IMG/VR virus record: IMGVR_UViG_3300030708_002914
Span: 1 to 30,436 of that record
Source of the DNA: a virus
Lineage: Duplodnaviria; Caudoviricetes
Strand: one strand, 5' to 3'
DNA length: 30,436 nucleotides
Shown here: piece by piece, positions 8,638 to 22,176 of the stretch
Layout of the letters: the number at the start of each line of letters is the position of its first letter
Position numbering within the stretch: position 1 is the stretch's first letter
Made by a program: the position numbers and the translations under genes
The notes under the pieces: generated by a model
Database searches by the model: none
Seen by the model: the letters and a program-made list of their open reading frames with translations, nothing else
What the model was told of the DNA's origin: nothing

Positions 8638-9525
8638 ATGAATACATTCAAAGAGGTAGCTCTCGACTATCTTGATCAGCCAACGAAATTCGGCAAGGAG
8701 AAATCCCACATTGCCGAGCTTCGGTTAACAGAGATGATCGAAAGCTTTGGTGATAAACCGATACAAGATATCGATGAGTTTCAGGTTAAGGCGTTTTTTA
8801 GAACGATCAAGAAAAAGAAATTGGCGAACGCGACCTACAATACATACGTCACCTACTATCACGCAGTCATGAACTATGCGATCGATGAGGTAGGGGTGAT
8901 TAAAGAGTTCTGCAAAATGAAATCTTTGCCTGAGCGGCAGCGCACCGACTTCCTCGAGCCTGAACAATTCAAGTCACTCTACAATAATCTCGATCCATTA
9001 CGACAAGACATTGTCATGTTGCTGGTGAATACAGGCTTACGAAAGAGTAACGGTAGTCAGCTGCGAGTTGACCAGGTATCGCCTTGTCGGAATTTTCTGA
9101 GGTTCTCGGATCGGTTGACCAAGAATGGCAAGCCACTCGAGGTTCCACTCAACGATAAAGCCAAAGAAGTCATCGAGAAAAGATTGGACCTGATCGAGCA
9201 GATGCAAACTAAGTACCCCTACCTAGGGATCATTGAGCATGTCTTCGTTCAGGAGTCAGGCAACGTCAAGCTGAACGGGAAGCCCATTGGGGATCTTTGC
9301 AATAAGACTTGGCGTAAAGCCGTAGCAGCTGCTGGGTTACCGAAAGGAACGTGCGTACATCATCTGCGTCACACCTTCGCCAGCTGGCACAAGAGAGCAG
9401 GAACCAACGATACCTTGATCGCTAAGATCGGAGGATGGGAATCGATGAAGTCGTTAGAAAGATACGGTCATGTATCGGGACCGGACACTCAGAGAGCTGC
9501 TGCAAATCTAGTGGTAGGTTTTTAA
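8638..9525 (+). CDS. Tyrosine recombinase 1 (core-binding + catalytic domains, no arm-binding domain)
   Basis: TGLRKSN (R), TKNGK (K), HHLRHTFASW (H-x-x-R), GGW and ERYGH (Y). 295 aa. Confidence 0.9.
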   Translation: MNTFKEVALDYLDQPTKFGKEKSHIAELRLTEMIESFGDKPIQDIDEFQVKAFFRTIKKKKLANATYNTYVTYYHAVMNYAIDEVGVIKEFCKMKSLPERQRTDFLEPEQFKSLYNNLDPLRQDIVMLLVNTGLRKSNGSQLRVDQVSPCRNFLRFSDRLTKNGKPLEVPLNDKAKEVIEKRLDLIEQMQTKYPYLGIIEHVFVQESGNVKLNGKPIGDLCNKTWRKAVAAAGLPKGTCVHHLRHTFASWHKRAGTNDTLIAKIGGWESMKSLERYGHVSGPDTQRAAANLVVGF

Positions 9526-9540
9526 GGAGGACAAGACAAA

Positions 9541-9843
9541 ATGCCATGGGACAGAAATGGAGGCGTGAAGTGGGTGACCAAGTCAAGGTGTACGGAGTTG
9601 ACGGGATACACCTCAAACCAAATACGATCAAAAATTGATCGAGGATTGTGGGTGAAGGGTGTTCACTTTACGGTGGCTGATAACGAACGATTAATTAACA
9701 TGGAAGAGGTTTATAAATGGGCAGATTCTTACCAAAAAACGTGTACGCCAGAGGCGACGGGAAGGGAGAAAAACTCTACTTCCAGTTCGAGTTTGAAGGA
9801 AGAGTTTACAAGGAAAAAACGGATTTTAAACGCAGCGACCTAG
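9541..9843 (+). CDS. xis: Excisionase (Xis)-like protein
   Basis: KWV...ELTGYT..QIRSKI..G.W..GVHF......LIN.EEV.KW winged-helix pattern, directly upstream of and overlapping the integrase. Strong AAGGAGG SD. Confidence 0.75.
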   Translation: MPWDRNGGVKWVTKSRCTELTGYTSNQIRSKIDRGLWVKGVHFTVADNERLINMEEVYKWADSYQKTCTPEATGREKNSTSSSSLKEEFTRKKRILNAAT

Positions 9844-11129
9844 AGACAGACTCAGGACGAATCAAAATCAAAAATGCGTTGAAGCAATTTAAACAGCGCA
9901 AACAGAACGAAACGTCTGAGGATCGAAGAGCTGAAAGAAAAGAAGAAAGGCAGCGACAGCGAGAAGTGGTCAACGAGCCATTTTACAAAGTTGCTGAACG
10001 CTATCTTAATGCGATCAAAAACGGAGACAGGAAGCTAGGCATCGCAAGAGTCAAAAGCGATAGCACTCGAAAAAGTTACGCGAGCAGCCTAGCGAACTTC
10101 TGGTCCTATTTGCACGACATCAATATTAGAGAAATTGATGAAGATGATTTGACCTACATCTTCGAGTTGAGAGCGGATCTGGAAAATGCAAACTCATGGT
10201 CAAATCATTTCACTCCACTGAAGGGTGTTTTCAAATACGCGATGAAAGCTCGAATGATCATTCAAGATCCCAGTGCGGTTCTGAGCTCAGCGGGTTACGA
10301 GATCACGGAGCCTGATCCCTATTCGCTAGAAGAGAAGAATGCGCTGCTGGATTATCTTTCGAGAACTCAATTCGGAAACTTTTTCCGATTAGCGTTTGGG
10401 ACAGGGATGAGGACAGGCGAGCTGTTGGCAATCAGCTGGGATGATTTTAACGGCAGCTCTTTGTACATTCACAACTCAATGGTGAAAGACAAAGAAACGA
10501 ACGATACCAAAACCCATAAGCCAAGATTCACCCACTTAGGCGAAGATGAAATAGCTATGTTGAAAAACATGGTTAGACCAATTGGCGGAGGACGCATCTT
10601 CAAATATAAGAAGGAGCCGAAACAATTTGTAAACGAGCCTTGGACTCGGACCGACTATCGTCCCTTTGTTGAAGCCCGAGCCTTTGCCACTTCGCTCAAC
10701 CTAAACAGCGAGGCTCAATGGAGGGAGTTTGCTTCGAGCGGCGAGAAGCCCAATGACATTCCATATTCTGTCAGACAGGTGTACCGAAACCATGGATGGA
10801 TTAGCTTCGAGGATTTCCTGGGCTATGGAGATCGAGAACTCACCAACGGTAAAAAGCCCATGGAGTACTGGAAGGCAGCGCATGAAGCCACTGGCGTTCG
10901 CAGGAGGATGGGTCCATATCCTTGGCGACACACCTACATCAGCGAAATGCTGAGCTCTGGAGTGCCTCAGAACCTTGTAGCGGAACAGGTTGGAGACCGT
11001 CCCTCAACTATCCAAGATTACTATTACAAGTACATTCCAAGGGACAATGATGAGGCGGTAATCAAGGCAGCAAGAAGGGCGATTGAGGTTGAAAAGCCTA
11101 CCCAAAGCCTACCAAAACGTGATTTTTAG
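9717..11129 (+). CDS. int: Tyrosine integrase 2 (arm-binding type) with inserted ~55-aa module
   Basis: N-terminal beta arm-binding-like segment, GTGMRTGEL, TKT, PYPWRHTY, QVGD and YYYKYI. Ends inside attP. Confidence 0.92.
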   Translation: MGRFLPKNVYARGDGKGEKLYFQFEFEGRVYKEKTDFKRSDLETDSGRIKIKNALKQFKQRKQNETSEDRRAERKEERQRQREVVNEPFYKVAERYLNAIKNGDRKLGIARVKSDSTRKSYASSLANFWSYLHDINIREIDEDDLTYIFELRADLENANSWSNHFTPLKGVFKYAMKARMIIQDPSAVLSSAGYEITEPDPYSLEEKNALLDYLSRTQFGNFFRLAFGTGMRTGELLAISWDDFNGSSLYIHNSMVKDKETNDTKTHKPRFTHLGEDEIAMLKNMVRPIGGGRIFKYKKEPKQFVNEPWTRTDYRPFVEARAFATSLNLNSEAQWREFASSGEKPNDIPYSVRQVYRNHGWISFEDFLGYGDRELTNGKKPMEYWKAAHEATGVRRRMGPYPWRHTYISEMLSSGVPQNLVAEQVGDRPSTIQDYYYKYIPRDNDEAVIKAARRAIEVEKPTQSLPKRDF

Positions 11130-12352: not shown

Positions 12353-12691
12353 TTATTTTTTATTCATCCATCCCGTCACGCCCATGTGAGCTCCGATCAC
12401 ACCAGCCATACTGATGTAAAAAAGTCCGATTAGATCCGATAGTTGATTGACTCGAGTTTCCGCAACAGCTGGTGAAATAAGGAGTAGCGTGACAACCATG
12501 ACCCCAACAAGGCATGTCCAAGCCATACTGCGCTGGCTATCACTTTTCTCATCAGCCATCTCGAGATCGAGCTGAGCTTTCTCCAAAGATATTTGAGCAA
12601 GTCCTTGGTCAACTTCGCTAGTACTAAGCACGTCGTCGCCGTCCACATCAAACCGTTCATACTTTGATCCCTTTTCTAGTTTCTTGCTCAT
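12353..12691 (-). CDS. Two-TM membrane protein with EF-hand-like N-terminal loop (putative holin-like)
   Basis: DVDGDDVLSTSE loop, two hydrophobic segments and a basic C-terminus. Confidence 0.6.
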   Translation of the reverse strand: MSKKLEKGSKYERFDVDGDDVLSTSEVDQGLAQISLEKAQLDLEMADEKSDSQRSMAWTCLVGVMVVTLLLISPAVAETRVNQLSDLIGLFYISMAGVIGAHMGVTGWMNKK

Positions 12692-15600
12692 TTGCCCAAT
12701 GCTTTCTTGTATCGTTTATTAAATACGTCATAGATCAATTGATTTTCTTCATCGAGCTTTTTCAATGCTTCAGCTCTTCTGGTCCTATCAACATTCTCGA
12801 GACCTTCTAGCCTTTTTATTTCTTGTCTGTTCTTTCTTAATCTTCTATCTGCTGCTTTCAGCTGATTGGGTAAAGTGAGGTAGTACTCTCTACTTTTTCT
12901 ATCAACCAACTTAGTCCTTTGCTCTGCATCACTATTTTCCCAACGATTCATTTCTCTTTTGAATTCAGCTCGATTGTCGTAATACCTGAACTGATCGTTG
13001 TATTCACTAGGGTTGAATGCAAATTTCCTGAGTACTGGCAGATCAGATTCCTTTAACTCTCCTTCAGGTATCACGGTCTTCTGAGCTGTATCTACAGCGT
13101 CTGTACCGAAACGACCTAATCCTCCTAGCATGAAATCAAACATATGCTGGAGCCTGTCAGGAGACATATCTATCAATCCCTTTGTCTCCATCGATCCGCC
13201 AGTAATACTGTTTACTGTTTGAGCAAACCATTTAAAGCTTTCTAAGGTTCCCCTCTTGCCAACACTTGATGCTGGGTCGTCTGTATAGGGTGTGGGTAAT
13301 ACTATTGGCGATCCAAAAAAATTGACGTTCATAGCCTGTTCTGTACCAAACAGCGCGACATCAGGTAATAACCCAGAAAATGCTTGCCAACCCTGCGCGA
13401 TAACATCGTCTTCACTATTTACAGCATGCAGATCTCTTGGGGAGAAGTGATGTGCAGTAGCCTTGTAAAGGTCTACAGCTCCTTCTGCTGGTGTCTTCAC
13501 ATCCATAAACTGTTCAGCAACGATCCTGCCGAAATTATCGAAATACCCCCATCCATACGCCAGAGGAACACCATACGCTTCATCTGCGAAAGTGATCGCC
13601 ATCGTGCTGCTTAGTAGATGCGAATTGTAGTCTGCGTATTTAGGCTCCTCGTCATCGTCTTCTCCAGCAAGCATTACGTTTGCAATGGTTCTCATAAACC
13701 CAAACGCAACCATGCCCATAGCTACTTTCCTAGCAGCTGTTGCCGTAGCTATAGCCATTCCTGCTTTTCCAGCTGATCCACCAGCCATAATCGCATTCTT
13801 TATGTTGACGTTACCCTGAATCGCAGCGTTGAAGAAAAGATAAAGACTATCAATAGCAGACGATGCTTCACCTTTACGGTTGAAATTTACTGTTAAATCC
13901 TTGGCGAGAGTCGCCGCATCAAGTCTAGGCGTTCCGGCTTTTCTTGCTTCTATATAGGTAGAGATTCTAATAGCATTCTCTGAGCCCTGATTAGCATGCT
14001 CAATCCAATCAAGCATGTTGTCTCTTATTGCCGCAGCTTGCCCAGGTGCTCCAATTCTTATGTTGAATTTATCTGTGCCTATTTGTCGTGGCATTGTTCT
14101 CTGGAACGACTGCTGGATCTCTTCCAAAGACTTCGTTGTAGCTAACCCTGTTGGAGCACCGTCCTCTATAAAGTCTTTGATGTACTGGAATATCTCTGCT
14201 TGCTTTTCATTCTTAGGCTGCTTGCCTCTCTTGAAATCAAAGTAAGCTTTCCCAGATGGAGCCCAGCCCTTCATCACTTTGCCGATAAGCTTTTGTCCAG
14301 AGACTCTCCCTTCTGGTGTTGTTTGTTCGCTAAGCAAAAAGGCTAAACCAGTTTCAACGTCTCGGATCGGGTTGACAAAAAACCATGAGGGATTCCAGTT
14401 AATAATTACATTACGCCTGAAATTCTGGAACTGCCTTAACACTCGCAGTCCATACTCGATCCCTTCATTAGCTTGATTAAAGGCAGCAACATTCCCATCT
14501 TGCAGCTGCCTGTTTAATCGCTCATCGAAAATCTCAATGAAGTAGGTTTGCCCTCCCCTTTTTACCTGAATGTATTTTGGCATTGCAGGATCGTCTTCCC
14601 TCATCTCCCTTTTCATCTGGTCTAGGGTTTTGGGATCTGTTGGATCATACTTACTGTCTGGTCTATTTCTGTTAGTAAAGACTCTCCATGCTTCTGGAGC
14701 ATCAAACTTTTGAACTAGCTTTAGTAATTTCTGGGAGGCGTAATTTTTCTCCGCTCTAAGAATTTTTTCTTCAGCATCTTTAAATGCAACAAACAAAGGA
14801 TTATCAGGCAGCGTAACACGACCTTTAGCCTTCATCGATTCACTGCCTTTAATGTTAAAACCTTTTGCTCTTGGGCTTGCTCGATATACCCCTTCTTGGT
14901 CTAAGAACCCTTTCAAAGGAACATAGAACTGATAGGTGCTTTCCCAATCTCTTCTGGTTTCTTCATCTAGCAATCCCTTATCAACCATGTTTTGCCGCAT
15001 CTCATCTAACATAGCGTAGACACGACTAGCGATTGCTTCGTACTGCTCTTTATTCCCAGCCTTCTCAGCGTTCTCGAGGACCAGTGCAGCTTCTGCATCA
15101 GTCATACCGGAACCTGTTTCTTGATGCCTGAACGGCGCGTTTTGCAAGGTCTCTATTTTTTCGGCGATTGATGGAGATCCTTCGGGCTGCGTGTCAGATA
15201 CACTCTCCTCTAGCTGCCTTTCTAATGTAACTATTTTCGCAGCTCGTCGTTCCTGTTCTTTCCTGAGTGTTTCAGCGTTTCTTTCTGCGGCATGCTTGGC
15301 AAGTAAATACATACCTATTTGGTCAGTAGATAGATCAAACTTATTAGCTAGATCAGCTATCGCTGCTATATGTTTTTCTTCAAACCTTTCTAGCTGCTCA
15401 CTGACCCTGCTATGCATAAGGTTTTCAGAATCTCTAAAGGACATGCTGGCTGGCAATCTAGGAACGCCTAGTGCTTTTGCCATAGCCTTTTCTACGGTTT
15501 GCCACCGCTCGTATCGATCTACAACATTTTCAGTGAACTTTTCATTAATACGATCTGCTAAGTGTGCTTCAGATCGGACCTCATCATCGACGTTGAATGC

Positions 15601-18600
15601 TGAACCGGGAGCTGCTCCTGACTCTAATGTAATGGTAGTTCTTCTGCTCTTTCTAGGCTTTGGTGCGTCTTCATCATCGATCTCGATCTGTAACGGTTCT
15701 TCTCGACCTACAACAGATATGCCTAACCTTTGAGCTTTTTCTGCCGTAGTTTCCAGATCAAAAGCAATATTAATCTCTTTGCTCAGCTCCTCGTTTGACA
15801 ATGAAGATAACCTGAACTCTTCAGCCTTCTGGTCTTGGTATTGCAGAAGACCAGGGAATTTTCTATTAGAAATGCCGTATGCTACAAATTCTCTTATCAG
15901 CTGATCTGAGGTTTTTCCTTCTCTGATAACCTTTCCAGCGTCATCGATAACAGGAGGTATTGGCTCAAAGAGCTCATTGCTTCTTGGATCTCCAGACTTA
16001 TCTAATTTTTTGTAGGTATCCGGCAAAGACATGTTCTCTAGCAAAGACTTTAAAGAAACCCCATCGCCGAGCAGGACAGCTGCTTGATCAGTAACATTGC
16101 TATCATGACGTTGCATTTCTTCTCTAGAATCAAACCCTCTTTCTTTAGCTCTTCTTTCTGCCCAAGCATCTATGATCTGTTTTATAGCTTGAGTCTGATC
16201 TCCTCCTTGAGAAAAAGCTCTAGCAAGATCTTTAGCGATATCATCACTAGGCAGGTATTTGATTTCTGCCCCAGAGGTCGTATCACCAAAGTTAGCATTG
16301 ATGTATTTGCCCAGTGCGCTTTTTGTGGACTGAGACACTTCATAGTTATCTAGCCCTTCATCGAAGACAGTGTTTAGAAGATCGTCAACATTATCAAAGC
16401 CTAACCAATCATCCCTTTGCAGGGCTCTCATTAGGTCTCTTGATTCTTTAGTAAATACTAAAAGGTCTTGGGCTGTTAATTCGTTGAGAGGGATGCCGTC
16501 TACGCCATCGATCAAGCCTAAGTCTTCTATCTCTCTGGCAAGCTGATTTCTTGAGTATTCGTTAGCTGTTACTTGCTGGTAAGCAGGAGGCTCATCACCA
16601 AATTCTATTTGCCTCGGTTCTTGAACCTCTGGGCTATCAATTTGATCTTGGTCTCGCTCAGCTGCGCGAGTTGTCCGTTGAACTCTTCCTGTTCTAGGTT
16701 GCTGTGCAGATCCGACTGATCCAGATACTCCCTGTCCTGATTCCTCACCCTCGATGATTTTTCTGAATTCTGTTTCATAATCTGTTGGCTCCGATCTCGC
16801 GTTACCTACGCCGTGTAGCTTGTAAAGCTGCTTTTCTGGATACCAGATTATAGCTTGTAACGCACCCATGTTGATAGGATTGTTAGAATTAAAATCATTT
16901 ACTTTTTCTAAAGCTCTTTCCATGAGTCGGCGGATATACTCTCGTTCAGAGCCATTTTGAGGAGCTTGTTTTTCATCTTGCGATTTAACAAACGTATTCG
17001 AGGCAAGGTTCAATGTATTCTTTAGTTTGAATCCGCCTTTTGCATACTCACGCTGGACTTTTCTCGCGTAATCTTCGAGATATTCATCATCTTTCCTAAG
17101 CTGAACCCTGCCAATTCCATCCTTCTTTAGCTTTTTTCGGTACTCATCCCTAAGAGCTGTCTCTCTAAACTTATTTAACTGATATGGCTTTGTTCGATCA
17201 GCCTCTTTCATAAGCGATCCGGTTAGTCGCCCATACGTTCTCATGAACCATCGATCCATAGTTAAAGGATCATAGTTACCATTTAGGTTTTGATAGAAGC
17301 CCCCGCCTATTTTCGGTCCCAAAATAGCTGAGCCTTTGAGAACCGTCCCTTGCAATTCGCCAGATACTGTTAGGTCAAAGTTGTTTTTTAAGTCACGAAC
17401 AGTGATGTCTTCGTCCATAAACTTTCTGACACTGTCGATACCATCGGCTTCTATTAAGGCATTTAACAGCGCGAATGATTTCCTCATCGATGGACCTTCT
17501 TTCCCAGATCCAAATATAGTGAACTCATTGTTTTGCCTGTACTCTTCATACAGCCTAAAAGCATTGACCGAGTTTTCTGCGACAGTCGCACCGTTACTTG
17601 TAACCGCCATAATCGCTGTGAAAGCAAACTTAGGATTGGGGTCATTAGATCCTGCCGCGAGCTCTGGAAACTTTTGCGCTGCAAGTTCTAGCGCAGCTGC
17701 TACCTTCTGTTGATACCACTCTCCAGCATTGCCGTCTTGATCTAATGCCTGAAGTGCCTCATGAGTAATTAGATCCGATACGATCTCTACATTCTCATCA
17801 GTTCTCTCTGACAGATCTCTATCTGGATAAGCCTCTGCTGCTTTATTGTCGAATTCCCTAGCAACCTTAATGACAGTTGGTTGACCCTCAACGGGTCTGG
17901 GAGGCTCTCCTCCATAGAGAGTGGGAGTTGCGGTTAATTGTTGAGACTCTGAGGGAAGATCCTCAAAGCGTATATCTAGCTGCGTCTGTTCCTGTACAGG
18001 AGGTCTAGCGTCGAGCCTGTCTTGGTCTTGAACCTGTCCCGCCACTCCGGTATCGGAGACCCTTTGTCCAACGCCTCCCTCGCCAGTGAGTCCAGTTCCT
18101 CCTGGGTCAGGTATTTCTCCGCCTCTATCGACGGCTCGTGACCGAATGTCAGCTTGTACTCCTGAAGCGTCGGGCTCAGCTCCTCTATTAATAATTTCGT
18201 CTTCATTTCTTCGTATCTCTAGTCCGGTTAGAAAAGGCTGCTTGAAGATATGTTCCATCAAGCGGTACGCTTTCGGAGCCTTCCTTTCAAGTATAGCGGG
18301 AAAATCTACATGAAGCGCACCTAATTGAGCGAACACTTCCTGCTGCAAAAATGTATGTAAATCACGTTCTGCTGCTAGTGATTCTTCGTAAAAAGTCTGA
18401 TTGCCCCCGGTTTGCGGATTATCAAGACTAACTCTTTGCCTAGCTTCTCTGACTAATCGCCCGTACTGCTTGAACGGATAGGTAAACTGCAACCCAACTT
18501 CATCTCCCGATACATACAGGTCATACAGTTCTTGAATTATAGGTCCAAAGGTAACTTGAGGATCGGCTATATCGGCTTCGTTATTGGGATCAAACTTACC

Positions 18601-21600
18601 GTCAACCTCAAATGATTTTAGGAAAAAGGTGTAGTTCTTTTGATAATCAGCATGATGCATAAACTCATGCGCTAACACATGAATTAACTGCCTCGTAAGC
18701 TTGCCGTTTTGAAAGTCTGCAATCGCGTCATCAAACAACTTTGAGTTGACTACAACGGACTTTTCACTGGGATGGTATTGACCTCCTTTGGTTAAATTAT
18801 CTCTTACATAAATACCGCCGGAACTTTCTAGAAACTCACTAGGCATTCCTCGTTCTGCGAGCTCTAATATAGCGTGTGCAATTTCTGCAACACCATCTTT
18901 CTGGTCCAGATCAGAACCATCGTATCCCATGTATTCTGTTACAGACGGGAGCTTTGTAATTCTGTCATCGTCTCTTGGCTGTCTTCCAATGCCTTGTAGC
19001 ATCTTCATTAGCTTAGAAGCTGATCCAAACCCTCGCTCCATTCTGGTCTTGCCGCCACCAGCTTTGATGGATACCGTAGATCCTGTTCTATCGTTGATCC
19101 TGTTTATTCTTTGAGCAACCGTAAGATTTTCATCTTTACCAAGCGGACCTTGGGTTTCATTGTAGAAAGAAGCTGTTGGGTTTTCAGGGTCTCGAAGAGT
19201 GGTAGGAGCTGGTCGATCATCACCGAGCTCCATAAGAAGCGGTGCTGTATACCCTGCTTCGTTTTTAGTCAGGTTTTTAACGGTCTCTTCGCGAGAATAG
19301 CCAATAAACGAGTCTGTCTCAGCATCAACCCAGAGCTCTTGATCGCCGTCTCTAACTAGTTCTACGGTATAAGTGTTACCGTTGTCGAACGAAATTAAGA
19401 ACTGAGCTTCATTTTCTGGGTTTCTAGATACTTTAGGAGTGCCTACTGCATCAATGGCAAAAGCCTGTTTCTGATCGTCCGCCATCTTGAGCGCAGCAAT
19501 AGCGTCTTCTCTAGTGTCACCGAGGTCTTGATTAATCTCTACGTTGTCTCTGGGAGCGGCATTAAACCATCCGCCCCCTGCATCAGCCATATACTGACCA
19601 ATAAGGTAATCATTACCAGTATCAGGGAAGACAACTTTGGTTCTGTTAAAGCCAGCTCCTGCTTCAGGAGTTACTATCGGATCGCTGGGATCTACTTGTT
19701 TGGTGAATAGATTTTTTACCCGCTGAAAAAAAGAAGGCGCGGGACCATCAATTTGTTCTTTAATTCCAAGAACCCTTTCTCGAAGAATCGCAATGTTTTC
19801 GTCAAGGGTACGAGACTCAGGCTGAACTAGCTCTCCGGGATCTTCCGAGCCCTCTCGTCCATCATCCTCCTGAATAGTGCCTTCGCGTAACGACGCGAGT
19901 TCTCGCTCATCTGTTTCGGTTTGTCCGAGATCAGGAATTGCAGCTGTCGTTTCTGCTTCTCGGTCAGTTCCATCACTTTCTTTTCCATCAGATTTCCCAA
20001 ATATTTCGTCGAGTTCAGCTTCTTTTTCTTCTTCGGTTTTGTTTTTCCATTCTTCAGCTTTAAGTGCATCAGCTTCAGAAACCGCTCTTACAGAATCGCT
20101 GTACTCCTCTTCTGTAAGACTAAACTCTGGATCAGCTCCAGACAACTCGTTCGCAATTGAATCTTGATATCGTTGATCTTCATCAATCATATCTTGAATA
20201 GATCCCAGCATCGATTCAATGTGTCTTGTCTCAGCTGCGGTTAACTTTTCGCCAGAGATTGCTTTTTTAACAGCCTTTCGAGTCGCAACGCCTTCAGTAT
20301 TCTTCTTTAATGGCGCGGATTTTTGAGCATCTCTCCACCATTCTGATCGAGCAACCCAAGGAGTACGCCCCTTAGACTCCCCTTCGGGATCAACGATGCC
20401 TTTCCCGCCCATTGTTTCCCAGCCAGCACCATCCCTAGCCATGTCGCTTAATATTTCTGCGTTGTCTTGAACCTGTTGAGCTAAACTGGGCTCTTCCTCA
20501 ACAGCTGGCTCAGGTTCCGGCTCTTGAACTACTTGCGGATCAATAACCTGTTCTTCGTCAGTAACTGGGGGCAAATCAATGAGCCCTTCATCTGCATCTG
20601 GGGGTGGGAAAAGCTCCATAGCTCCTTCGTCCGTGATGCTGTATATAGAACCTTCTGCATCTAGATCTGCGCTAATAAGCTCCTGCTCTTCTAATGTATC
20701 TAAGAGCTCCTGAGCTTCTACAGGGGCTATGTCCATAGCGTTTGCCACATCATCTACCGATACATCACCTTGATTGACCACATCTAATGCAGCGTTTAGG
20801 CGTTGTTCTAAAACAGATTGAGTTGGCTCTGCTGTTTCTTGAGTTTCAGTGACAGGCGTTCTTGTTTCTTCTTCTCTTGGATCTGTTGTCGGCAGAGCTG
20901 GCTCGGTTTCAACTTGGTTTTCTACGCTGTCGTAGGCATCCATTGCTTCTTTTCTCAGTTGAGCCAACACCTGTTGCCGCAGCTGCTCTCTTTCTGGATC
21001 GAACTTCTGATCTGGTCCTGCTACTGCACCAATAGTTCCGCCTATGGCACTACCACCAATAACACCAGCAACAGCTGCGTGAAGGTAGGAAGACATTGCA
21101 TCTTCATTAGACAAATAATCGATGAATCTAGCTTGCTGTTCTTCAGGCAAGTTTTCCTTTGCCCAAAGTACAGAGGTTCTGGATAACCATTCCTGGGTTG
21201 CTTCTGTTATTCCTTCTCTGGCTGCACCTATTCCAAGTTCTTTTACTGCCGATCCGGTACGAGTTCTGGGGTTAGAAACCGACTCGTACATTTTCCTAAT
21301 ACGACCACGGTCCTTTATTGCTGCTTCAGACAAATAGTCTTTCAAACTATCCATGCTTTCATCAGGAAACATTTTTTTGAATGCTCTAAATGGAGCACCA
21401 ATAGTGTCTAATGCTCCCATAGCAATACCTAGTGCCATAGCAGCACCAGGATCTTCTAGACCAGTTTCTTCGTATATTCTCGCAAAGTTTTCACCAGTAC
21501 CCATGGTTGCGCTAGTTAAACCACCACCAGCTACAGCTCCTCCCTGACCCAAGAGCTTGCTTTTTGCAACGCCTGAAGCTGATTTACCGTAACGCTCCAA

Positions 21601-22176
21601 AACCATATCTCTGTATTCATCTCTCGCGAGACGCTGCGCTTGGGTGTTAGCTAGATCTTGGGCGGCATCTTGGAACTTATCTTCAATTCTTTGCTCAACT
21701 TTGTTAGCAAGCATTTTTTTAGCTGCTAGTTTTGCTGCCGCACCAGTTACACCACCTCCGGCAATTGTCGTAACAATTGAAGGCAAGACGTTTCCAAGGG
21801 TATAAGCAGTGAAATCAGCAAAATCACCAACACCTTCCCAATCATCCTCCCAGCTGACAGCTGGAGCATTCTCAGCTGCTTCATTCATCTGTTCTTGGTA
21901 ATAATCTAGACCCTCAGCAACCCACTCATCATTGCCAAATAAAGAACCTAACGCTGCTTTGGCTCCACCACCAATGAGACCCTGAGTCTGATCGATACCA
22001 GCACCAAATCCCTTAGCGAATTCTTCCGCTATGTATGTCTCATCGTCCTCTGGTGCGGGCTTTTGTCTTCTCTCTAACTCCTTATTCCTTTTATCTATCT
22101 CTCTAATAAAAGGATCGTCAGTTAGATAATCACGCTCATCTAAAAACTTATTGGGTTTTCGAGACTGTATTGGCAT
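12688..22176 (-). CDS. Giant polyvalent internal virion/ejection protein (3162 aa; wHTH, HExxH zincin-like, HhH-glycosylase-like, LPD38-like C-terminus)
   Basis: Uninterrupted ORF at the end of the ejection cluster. HEFMH at 18655-18669. GPKIG..FYQNL..D.WFMR..QAIIW domain at ~16820-17740. AKDLTVNFNRKG...YLFFNAAIQG followed by an LPD38-like region. Confidence 0.85.
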   Translation of the reverse strand: MPIQSRKPNKFLDERDYLTDDPFIREIDKRNKELERRQKPAPEDDETYIAEEFAKGFGAGIDQTQGLIGGGAKAALGSLFGNDEWVAEGLDYYQEQMNEAAENAPAVSWEDDWEGVGDFADFTAYTLGNVLPSIVTTIAGGGVTGAAAKLAAKKMLANKVEQRIEDKFQDAAQDLANTQAQRLARDEYRDMVLERYGKSASGVAKSKLLGQGGAVAGGGLTSATMGTGENFARIYEETGLEDPGAAMALGIAMGALDTIGAPFRAFKKMFPDESMDSLKDYLSEAAIKDRGRIRKMYESVSNPRTRTGSAVKELGIGAAREGITEATQEWLSRTSVLWAKENLPEEQQARFIDYLSNEDAMSSYLHAAVAGVIGGSAIGGTIGAVAGPDQKFDPEREQLRQQVLAQLRKEAMDAYDSVENQVETEPALPTTDPREEETRTPVTETQETAEPTQSVLEQRLNAALDVVNQGDVSVDDVANAMDIAPVEAQELLDTLEEQELISADLDAEGSIYSITDEGAMELFPPPDADEGLIDLPPVTDEEQVIDPQVVQEPEPEPAVEEEPSLAQQVQDNAEILSDMARDGAGWETMGGKGIVDPEGESKGRTPWVARSEWWRDAQKSAPLKKNTEGVATRKAVKKAISGEKLTAAETRHIESMLGSIQDMIDEDQRYQDSIANELSGADPEFSLTEEEYSDSVRAVSEADALKAEEWKNKTEEEKEAELDEIFGKSDGKESDGTDREAETTAAIPDLGQTETDERELASLREGTIQEDDGREGSEDPGELVQPESRTLDENIAILRERVLGIKEQIDGPAPSFFQRVKNLFTKQVDPSDPIVTPEAGAGFNRTKVVFPDTGNDYLIGQYMADAGGGWFNAAPRDNVEINQDLGDTREDAIAALKMADDQKQAFAIDAVGTPKVSRNPENEAQFLISFDNGNTYTVELVRDGDQELWVDAETDSFIGYSREETVKNLTKNEAGYTAPLLMELGDDRPAPTTLRDPENPTASFYNETQGPLGKDENLTVAQRINRINDRTGSTVSIKAGGGKTRMERGFGSASKLMKMLQGIGRQPRDDDRITKLPSVTEYMGYDGSDLDQKDGVAEIAHAILELAERGMPSEFLESSGGIYVRDNLTKGGQYHPSEKSVVVNSKLFDDAIADFQNGKLTRQLIHVLAHEFMHHADYQKNYTFFLKSFEVDGKFDPNNEADIADPQVTFGPIIQELYDLYVSGDEVGLQFTYPFKQYGRLVREARQRVSLDNPQTGGNQTFYEESLAAERDLHTFLQQEVFAQLGALHVDFPAILERKAPKAYRLMEHIFKQPFLTGLEIRRNEDEIINRGAEPDASGVQADIRSRAVDRGGEIPDPGGTGLTGEGGVGQRVSDTGVAGQVQDQDRLDARPPVQEQTQLDIRFEDLPSESQQLTATPTLYGGEPPRPVEGQPTVIKVAREFDNKAAEAYPDRDLSERTDENVEIVSDLITHEALQALDQDGNAGEWYQQKVAAALELAAQKFPELAAGSNDPNPKFAFTAIMAVTSNGATVAENSVNAFRLYEEYRQNNEFTIFGSGKEGPSMRKSFALLNALIEADGIDSVRKFMDEDITVRDLKNNFDLTVSGELQGTVLKGSAILGPKIGGGFYQNLNGNYDPLTMDRWFMRTYGRLTGSLMKEADRTKPYQLNKFRETALRDEYRKKLKKDGIGRVQLRKDDEYLEDYARKVQREYAKGGFKLKNTLNLASNTFVKSQDEKQAPQNGSEREYIRRLMERALEKVNDFNSNNPINMGALQAIIWYPEKQLYKLHGVGNARSEPTDYETEFRKIIEGEESGQGVSGSVGSAQQPRTGRVQRTTRAAERDQDQIDSPEVQEPRQIEFGDEPPAYQQVTANEYSRNQLAREIEDLGLIDGVDGIPLNELTAQDLLVFTKESRDLMRALQRDDWLGFDNVDDLLNTVFDEGLDNYEVSQSTKSALGKYINANFGDTTSGAEIKYLPSDDIAKDLARAFSQGGDQTQAIKQIIDAWAERRAKERGFDSREEMQRHDSNVTDQAAVLLGDGVSLKSLLENMSLPDTYKKLDKSGDPRSNELFEPIPPVIDDAGKVIREGKTSDQLIREFVAYGISNRKFPGLLQYQDQKAEEFRLSSLSNEELSKEINIAFDLETTAEKAQRLGISVVGREEPLQIEIDDEDAPKPRKSRRTTITLESGAAPGSAFNVDDEVRSEAHLADRINEKFTENVVDRYERWQTVEKAMAKALGVPRLPASMSFRDSENLMHSRVSEQLERFEEKHIAAIADLANKFDLSTDQIGMYLLAKHAAERNAETLRKEQERRAAKIVTLERQLEESVSDTQPEGSPSIAEKIETLQNAPFRHQETGSGMTDAEAALVLENAEKAGNKEQYEAIASRVYAMLDEMRQNMVDKGLLDEETRRDWESTYQFYVPLKGFLDQEGVYRASPRAKGFNIKGSESMKAKGRVTLPDNPLFVAFKDAEEKILRAEKNYASQKLLKLVQKFDAPEAWRVFTNRNRPDSKYDPTDPKTLDQMKREMREDDPAMPKYIQVKRGGQTYFIEIFDERLNRQLQDGNVAAFNQANEGIEYGLRVLRQFQNFRRNVIINWNPSWFFVNPIRDVETGLAFLLSEQTTPEGRVSGQKLIGKVMKGWAPSGKAYFDFKRGKQPKNEKQAEIFQYIKDFIEDGAPTGLATTKSLEEIQQSFQRTMPRQIGTDKFNIRIGAPGQAAAIRDNMLDWIEHANQGSENAIRISTYIEARKAGTPRLDAATLAKDLTVNFNRKGEASSAIDSLYLFFNAAIQGNVNIKNAIMAGGSAGKAGMAIATATAARKVAMGMVAFGFMRTIANVMLAGEDDDEEPKYADYNSHLLSSTMAITFADEAYGVPLAYGWGYFDNFGRIVAEQFMDVKTPAEGAVDLYKATAHHFSPRDLHAVNSEDDVIAQGWQAFSGLLPDVALFGTEQAMNVNFFGSPIVLPTPYTDDPASSVGKRGTLESFKWFAQTVNSITGGSMETKGLIDMSPDRLQHMFDFMLGGLGRFGTDAVDTAQKTVIPEGELKESDLPVLRKFAFNPSEYNDQFRYYDNRAEFKREMNRWENSDAEQRTKLVDRKSREYYLTLPNQLKAADRRLRKNRQEIKRLEGLENVDRTRRAEALKKLDEENQLIYDVFNKRYKKALGK
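16605..16778 (-). CDS. Candidate nested gene C (57 aa, +1 frame of giant gene)
   Basis: MKQNSEKSSRVRNQDREYLDQSDLHSNLEQEEFNGQLAQLSETKIKLIAQRFKNRGK. GGAG lies 10 nt before the ATG. Starts at the end of the glycosylase-like domain. Confidence 0.45.
   Translation of the reverse strand: MKQNSEKSSRVRNQDREYLDQSDLHSNLEQEEFNGQLAQLSETKIKLIAQRFKNRGK
17976..18206 (-). CDS. Candidate nested gene B (76 aa, +1 frame of giant gene)
   Basis: MKTKLLIEELSPTLQEYKLTFGHEPSIEAEKYLTQEELDSLAREALDKGSPIPEW... looks globular while the main frame is Gly/Arg/Asp low-complexity. Follows the HExxH domain. Weak SD. Confidence 0.55.
   Translation of the reverse strand: MKTKLLIEELSPTLQEYKLTFGHEPSIEAEKYLTQEELDSLAREALDKGSPIPEWRDRFKTKTGSTLDLLYRNRRS
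19827..19988 (-). CDS. Candidate nested gene A (53 aa, +1 frame of giant gene)
   Basis: MEKKVMELTEKQKRQLQFLISDKPKQMSENSRRYAKALFRRMMDERARKIPES forms amphipathic helices. The main frame here is an acidic linker. Confidence 0.4.
   Translation of the reverse strand: MEKKVMELTEKQKRQLQFLISDKPKQMSENSRRYAKALFRRMMDERARKIPES

Follow-up and report, generated by a model that had tools for sequence, protein, structure and literature searches.

Small genes nested in the linkers of a giant phage polyvalent protein likely encode inhibitors of the domains they follow

Polyvalent proteins were defined as a class by Iyer et al. (2017, PMC5512222), who give LPD38 as a phage-type domain and propose that a metallopeptidase processes the polyprotein; the main text of that paper contains neither 'overlap' nor 'glycosylase', uses 'nested' for a hairpin only and is not known to describe an immunity partner. 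One polyvalent protein is reported to be needed for infection by phage PTXU04 (PMC11879866). For the polymorphic MuF toxins encoded by temperate phages, Jamet et al. (2017, PMC5576092) report that a small ORF (open reading frame) follows 89.4% of 191 toxin genes and that 20% of the toxins bear a metallopeptidase. Here we describe the IMG/VR virus record IMGVR_UViG_3300030708_002914 (the window, the whole stretch of 30,436 nucleotides that was analysed), in which a minus-strand gene for a protein of 3162 amino acids (aa) holds three small genes, A, B and C. All three are read in its +1 frame and overlap linkers that come after folded domains, and we propose that these genes likely encode inhibitors of the domains they follow.

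The 3162-aa protein is like the polyvalent proteins of PMC5512222 in being a giant multidomain phage protein that combines the phage-type domain LPD38 with a zincin-like metallopeptidase. Matches to phrog_14770/616/10691 cover its C-terminal 900 aa, and its gene is the last large one of the minus-strand module, coming after internal-virion, tail and acetyltransferase genes, a context that makes ejection of the protein from the virion likely. Unlike the MuF toxins, the window has no MuF domain (no MuF family is among its Pfam or PHROG matches), its enzyme domains are internal and several stand in series, and each small gene is contained entirely in that one uninterrupted gene and read in +1. 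A toxin-like domain at the C terminus is found in four split relatives only and not in the window, and a small gene does lie directly downstream of the domain, but nested in +1. By analogy, the arrangement may work like a toxin-immunity cassette, yet it is no MuF system.

Whole small genes embedded in a shifted frame are familiar from phage lambda, with Rz1 inside Rz, and from Bacillus, with comS inside srfAB, and Rz1 is the partner of its host gene's product. Genes A, B and C likewise are complete, each with a start and a stop of its own outside the main frame, and selection acts in the frame that they use. They differ from Rz1 and comS in encoding neither spanins nor competence factors (their translations contain no hydrophobic signal stretch of the kind that would mark a spanin or lipoprotein), in forming a series of three, every one preceded by an enzyme-like domain, and in a contact that is predicted to be inhibitory. 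A preliminary description of this DNA knew of no account of the arrangement; a literature search, mostly of open papers without their supplements, yielded no account of nested inhibitor genes in polyvalent proteins. The features concerned are the following, in window coordinates.

12688 to 22176, minus strand: phage polyvalent protein of 3162 aa, hosting nested genes A, B and C
13033 to 13602, minus strand: LPD38 domain of the 3162-aa protein (Pfam PF18857, aa 2859-3048, E 2.4e-22)
20167 to 20439, minus strand: domain A, AGW..GG..RTPW, aa 580-670, followed by an acidic helical stretch
19827 to 19988, minus strand: nested gene A, 53 aa, basic (isoelectric point, pI, 10.3), +1 frame, ATG kept in four contigs
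18226 to 18933, minus strand: domain B, ATLF/PPEP-like zincin metallopeptidase, aa 1082-1317, with H1170-E-x-x-H1174, Y1233 and E1280
17976 to 18206, minus strand: nested gene B, 76 aa, +1 frame, predicted inhibitor of domain B
16741 to 17874, minus strand: domain C, with a helix-hairpin-helix (HhH) DNA-glycosylase fold, aa 1435-1812, with an invariant G-x-K hairpin and TMD-x-W motif
16605 to 16778, minus strand: nested gene C, 57 aa, +1 frame, helical motif (L/M)(S/T)xE(E/Q)xxxLA, likely partner of domain C

The preliminary description had placed the three same-strand ORFs in the +1 frame of the 3162-codon gene, behind the AGW..RTPW domain with its acidic helix (A), the HEFMH zincin (B) and the glycosylase-like domain (C), with GGAG 10 nt upstream of one of them. 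These positions were verified, and the GGAG belongs to gene C. A stop-depletion and shuffle check within the window alone found no excess over chance: 2000 synonymous shuffles gave P=0.23 for at least three ATG-started ORFs of at least 57 aa, the number observed in +1; the giant gene has 191 +1 stops against 184+/-6 in the shuffles; and the chance of the open stretch under shuffling is 0.18 for A, 0.019 for B, 0.18 for C and 0.05 for a shadow ORF at 17484. A +1 stop mostly requires a Leu, Ile, Val or Met codon in the main frame; because of this, linkers are poor in +1 stops anyway, and stop depletion alone is therefore no proof of a gene.

Conservation among relatives distinguishes B and C from such shadows. 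A main-frame pattern scan for domain B yielded 50 loci, 33 of them distinct, including the window, and 32 long enough to be informative. ORF B is nested behind the domain in all 32 (one is clipped by a contig end; seven, the window among them, belonged to the seed alignment), with no +1 stop among 1,590 codons; the main frame is uninterrupted in every case. At 38-52% identity the ORF also matches 14 of the 80 domain-C loci, each time in +1 and after an HExxH domain, and residues Y17, H23 and W55 of protein B are invariant in 34 sequences. The scan for domain C gave 80 viral loci, of which 78 were anchorable, the window included, and 56 distinct at 85%; an ATG-started ORF C follows the domain in 55 of these 56. 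The three bins that span 20-49 codons past the last motif hold 6, 0 and 3 +1 stops of 560 codons each, against 0.027-0.123 per codon inside domain C, and there is no such gap in +2. A second set (28 genome-contig loci and phage DC33, 23 anchorable) has 2, 0 and 2 +1 stops of 230 codons, with a lower background.

Constraint moves from the main to the +1 frame over both genes. The ratio of nonsynonymous to synonymous differences (pN/pS), computed over non-independent pairs and hence descriptive, lies over B at 0.23-0.71 in +1 but at 0.80-1.26 in the main frame, with 0.08-0.58 in the main frame of domain B. Among 16 close domain-C loci, at less than 45% divergence, +1 gives 0.08-0.50 over C and the main frame 1.5-2.1; inside domain C the order is inverted, with 0.08-0.26 in the main frame and 1.5-3.7 in +1. 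Variants among close strains, from related runs, follow the same pattern: of the 40 examined out of 312, the three that fall within B and C are all synonymous in +1 and alter the main frame, and of the 37 elsewhere 33 are synonymous in the main frame. Judged by sequence comparison, the nested genes are conserved in their own frame with their own starts, and the low-complexity linker that the preliminary description saw in the main frame is an unconstrained by-product reading. B and C are almost certainly real genes, and A is probably one. The tie of each gene to the domain before it, also claimed there, is well supported for B and C and moderately for A. The 66-aa ORF at 17484-17684, which that description had called a shadow, is unconserved in relatives, as is one at 16182-16343, and both were rejected as genes.

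The starts carry Shine-Dalgarno (SD) signals more often than chance positions do. Pairing with the anti-SD sequence reaches -4 kcal/mol or lower at 22 of 29 scored B starts, compared with 16% of 605 control +1 ATGs, and at 30 of 55 C starts, compared with 15% of 588 control ATGs; in the window itself the pairing is -3.9 for A, -2.9 for B and -5.8 kcal/mol for C. The ATG of C overlaps the final codons of domain C, and in many distant relatives the start lies 14-15 codons further on; a GTG start for C was considered and dropped. Internal promoters were rejected (9 sites against 16 expected), and a TATAAT ahead of C is kept in 5 of 56 loci and was rejected as a promoter.

By catalytic motifs and predicted fold, domain B resembles the ATLF, Pro-Pro endopeptidase (PPEP) and M90 zincins, and domain C the HhH DNA glycosylases, both at a distance of 8-17% identity in structural alignments. 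In domain B, H1170, the adjacent E, H1174, Y1233 and E1280 are invariant across 34 sequences; nine of 13 members have a Pfam ATLF match, and the AlphaFold model has a predicted local distance difference test (pLDDT) of 91. Its top Foldseek rows are zincins, weakly (E at least 0.05), its profile matches have E of at least 0.011, and a protein-database search found the window's own protein only; for B, an Atlas search returned unnamed clusters with scores of at most 0.87. Domain C (AlphaFold pLDDT 93) has as its top VIA match 8-oxoguanine glycosylase 3n0u (Z 10.2, root-mean-square deviation 4.4, 191 aligned), and DNA glycosylases make up 20 of its 23 top VIA rows; the list also includes an enzyme of queuine salvage and a phage transferase that modifies bases, and Foldseek did not recover the fold. 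G-x-K and TMD-x-W (G186, K188, D207) are invariant in 55 sequences, and we take these residues to be the HhH hairpin lysine and catalytic aspartate. On the predicted model domain C has the HhH glycosylase fold, from which base-excision activity does not follow. Genes A, B and C have no match in Pfam or PHROG, and 16 nested or stand-alone peptides of relatives gave two weak matches only in the same databases. The B and C profiles are unrelated to each other, and searches of solved sequences found no credible relative of B and nothing credible for C. Single-sequence scans of viral contigs with domain A, domain B, ORF A and ORF B confirmed nothing.

The preliminary description's idea of co-folding each domain with its nested peptide was carried out for B, as 34-row alignments of domain and protein beside three unrelated controls. 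The cognate pair scored 0.84 (0.85/0.84/0.83) and the best of the three controls 0.01, where the score mark is reached by 116 of 157 solved pairs and 2 of 215 mismatched ones, a calibration only rough for alignments of our own. Agreement of the contacts is at least 93%, and the partner's pLDDT is at least 91. On domain B the predicted interface takes in residues 47-56 (strand GQYH), H93, 152-162 (the invariant YPF) and 181-198 beside E199; H93 is the second HExxH histidine, a zinc ligand, and E199 the third ligand. We take this surface to be the substrate cleft on general zincin anatomy. Residues 1-10 of B lie against strand 124-129, away from the catalytic residues. A search for solved relatives of B gave none, so the predictor is unlikely to have reproduced a known complex. 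Protein B is thus predicted to bind across the catalytic cleft of domain B, and from this predicted binding we infer inhibition; on that model, B is probably the cognate inhibitor of its domain.

For gene C the indication is positional. In four relatives (L015, L017, L019 and L024, with near copies L020, L021 and L025) the main frame stops just past domain C, which there ends a protein of 633-764 aa; small gene C overlaps its stop in +1, and a gene of 960-1072 aa is seen downstream in three of the four. These split loci share the layout reported for MuF toxins, a toxin-like C-terminal domain followed by a small gene. With split and fused rows aligned together beforehand, the fused-C profile gives their C copies 20.8, 13.9, 7.2 and 12.8 bits, respectively, against 7.9 for the best of 2,053 decoys, and each copy outranks all, or all but one, of the decoys. 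By analogy with that layout, the balance tips slightly towards C being the cognate inhibitor of domain C. The earlier proposal of one inhibitor or chaperone per domain thus finds a predicted complex in the case of B, position in four split relatives in that of C and co-occurrence in that of A.

The frame of C continues, in L081, L139, L142 and L030, into a common C-terminal motif, roughly HPGLTREEAEEM, which suggests a second nested module fused to C. L081 is PQ492659, the cultured Limnohabitans phage DC33, in which a 3125-codon gene contains domain C and the +1 ORF that follows the domain is unannotated; its taxonomy line reads Inoviridae, despite a 39-kb genome with a 3125-codon gene.

B homologues outside intact polyproteins lie at L166, L178, L179, L194, L195, L196, L198, L199, L200 and L204. 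In four of these ten loci the protease tail alone is present and the main frame is broken, one of the two types having a stop in the overlap; B there keeps 86-94% identity to its nearest intact relatives. One free copy is directly upstream of an HsdM gene and two near-identical free loci adjoin a GmrSD-C-like gene (the domain call was made on L198, which carries two B copies), both being genes of restriction type, and three free homologues are parts of longer frames. A B profile search returned 79 proteins, many of them fusions. P0070 joins a B-like domain to a T5orf172 domain matching the PADLOC models PDC-S57 and PD-Lambda-1; in P0036, P0056, P0010, P0029 and P0041, as in P0070, a B-like domain is fused to T5orf172, which is confirmed in P0070 alone, or to tails of hydrophobic, membrane-like character. 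Such fusions are possibly sensors of, or decoys for, the injected protease. A relative of P0036 comes from a Pseudomonadales bin; host capture of B for defence is a lead only, these contigs being short. No B turned up among 401 genomes sampled from one order or in three single genomes, a search that lacked a positive control and is uninformative.

Nested proteins might instead bind their domains as chaperones, packaging adaptors, activators or substrates. Complex prediction gives a contact surface only, part of it outside the catalytic residues, and strict coupling to a domain suits a partner in any role. Inclusion of a zinc ligand, the edge strand and the invariant tyrosine in the predicted interface, the repetition of the MuF toxin-immunity layout at the split loci and the persistence of B homologues after decay of the protease, of which a folding chaperone would have no need, all argue the other way, and we regard these binding roles as unlikely.

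Several further observations weigh against the proposal that the nested genes encode inhibitors. The cleft interface would equally suit a substrate, adaptor or activator; both alignments behind the B complex come from the same loci; and its controls were unrelated proteins, domain C not among them. Ten of 48 B homologues lack nesting behind an intact protease. C is very divergent, with 24% mean column identity and no invariant column, and L079 has no ATG for it. The four split loci form one clade (Shimodaira-Hasegawa-like approximate likelihood-ratio test, SH-aLRT, 99) amid fused forms in a quick, midpoint-rooted tree; on this placement the change between split and fused may have run either way, and an origin by read-through fusion is only a possibility. 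Gene A is known from four contigs, and its changes among close strains are mostly non-synonymous in both frames. Three further nested basic families have differing upstream regions.

These last families, together with gene A, bear on the idea that the nested genes are real but passengers, small late genes using the free coding space of linkers and functionally unconnected to the domain. When 3,373 +1 peptides in 214 long ORFs are compared without bias, the comparison recovers B, C and A as clusters, with 1,811 edges from 3,461 pairs in +1 against 27 from 721 in +2, where the five clusters listed are of short peptides, mostly shadows over B. The further families, in the +1 frame of giant genes, are these.

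L055 7514-7663 and L059 4889-5041, also L074, L076 and L078: MPFKS-type nested basic family
L050 2015-2173, also L052, L071 and L077: MIRK..GYQV-type nested basic family
L048 4925-5116, also L062 and L070: MPLMKA-type nested basic family

Nested genes with varying upstream domains thus exist, and nesting therefore does not imply cognate inhibition; A is basic like these families, and linkage alone may hold neighbours together. B and C, however, each track one domain among phages 25-35% identical with different neighbouring domains; 38 of the 48 metagenome loci found through B have it nested in an open frame with an intact zincin directly upstream, and four more retain the tail of one; and the predicted B complex speaks against a mere passenger. 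Passenger status is improbable for the set as a whole and, among the three genes, most plausible for A. Nested genes thus fall into two classes, domain-coupled and passenger, and A could belong to either.

Gene A occurs in four distinct contigs (the window, L014, L082 and L084), each time behind domain A and with its ATG at the position of 19988; the copies of domain A in the other three are 60-69% identical to it. A longer start at 20069 was rejected, as relatives keep 19988. In the one pair compared, with L014, identity is 62% in +1 and 52% in the main frame, with pN/pS 0.43 and 0.90, and four close strains retain the start and frame. Domain A has no Pfam match in a whole-protein scan, no Atlas match and nothing in a protein-database search, and a weak PHROG match (E 0.029). 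Its cognate inhibition by A is doubtful. In run X9, an 85-base stretch at 20023-20109, just upstream of the A start, is swapped for 91 other bases with the flanks kept.

Frameshifting by ribosomes into +1, giving shortened polyproteins with alternative tails, is very improbable: in some loci +1 is already open far ahead of the ATG, but many loci have stops directly before it (L003, L014 and L002 for B; L024, L049, L055 and L059 for C), the starts bear SD signals and stand-alone copies exist. That the ORFs are shadows of linkers poor in Leu, Ile, Val and Met with few +1 stops, a view with which the number and length of the window's +1 ORFs agree, is refuted for B and C by the higher identity in +1 than in the main frame and the flip in pN/pS; the invariant residues and start sites and the sparse +2 comparison also count against it, and it can be set aside as virtually impossible.

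The window itself is a 30-kb virus record that occurs in marine and seawater metagenomes and has two integrase genes, a primase-helicase and a minus-strand tail and internal-virion module; a blastn search of GenBank phages gave no match. The two integrases are of the tyrosine type and lie near each other on the plus strand, at 8638-9525 and 9717-11129.

If the nested genes do encode inhibitors, translation of the small proteins would begin at starts within the same late mRNA, and in the producing cell they would keep both the protease and the enzyme with the glycosylase fold inactive. Being absent from, or shed by, the injected polyprotein, they would leave the enzymes active in the next host, where the protease may act on the polyprotein itself, in processing, or on a host protein. 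The overlap would allow an enzyme-plus-inhibitor cassette to sit inside a polyprotein without a stop codon. A tentative extension is that ejection polyproteins are chains of such cassettes, each linker shadowing the inhibitor of the preceding enzyme, and that freed or fused copies have been pirated, which would enable hosts to block the injected protease or to sense it.

Many phages encode polyvalent proteins, and how the enzymes of these proteins stay off before injection is an open question. If the proposal is true, the answer sits unannotated in the linkers: the 'low-complexity linkers' of polyvalent proteins would have been misread, and the +1 frame behind each domain would yield a candidate inhibitor for that domain. 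Nested genes would then flag which uncharacterised domains endanger the producer and provide a partner for their cloning and assay, and they would allow a direct test of the metallopeptidase's proposed role in self-processing.

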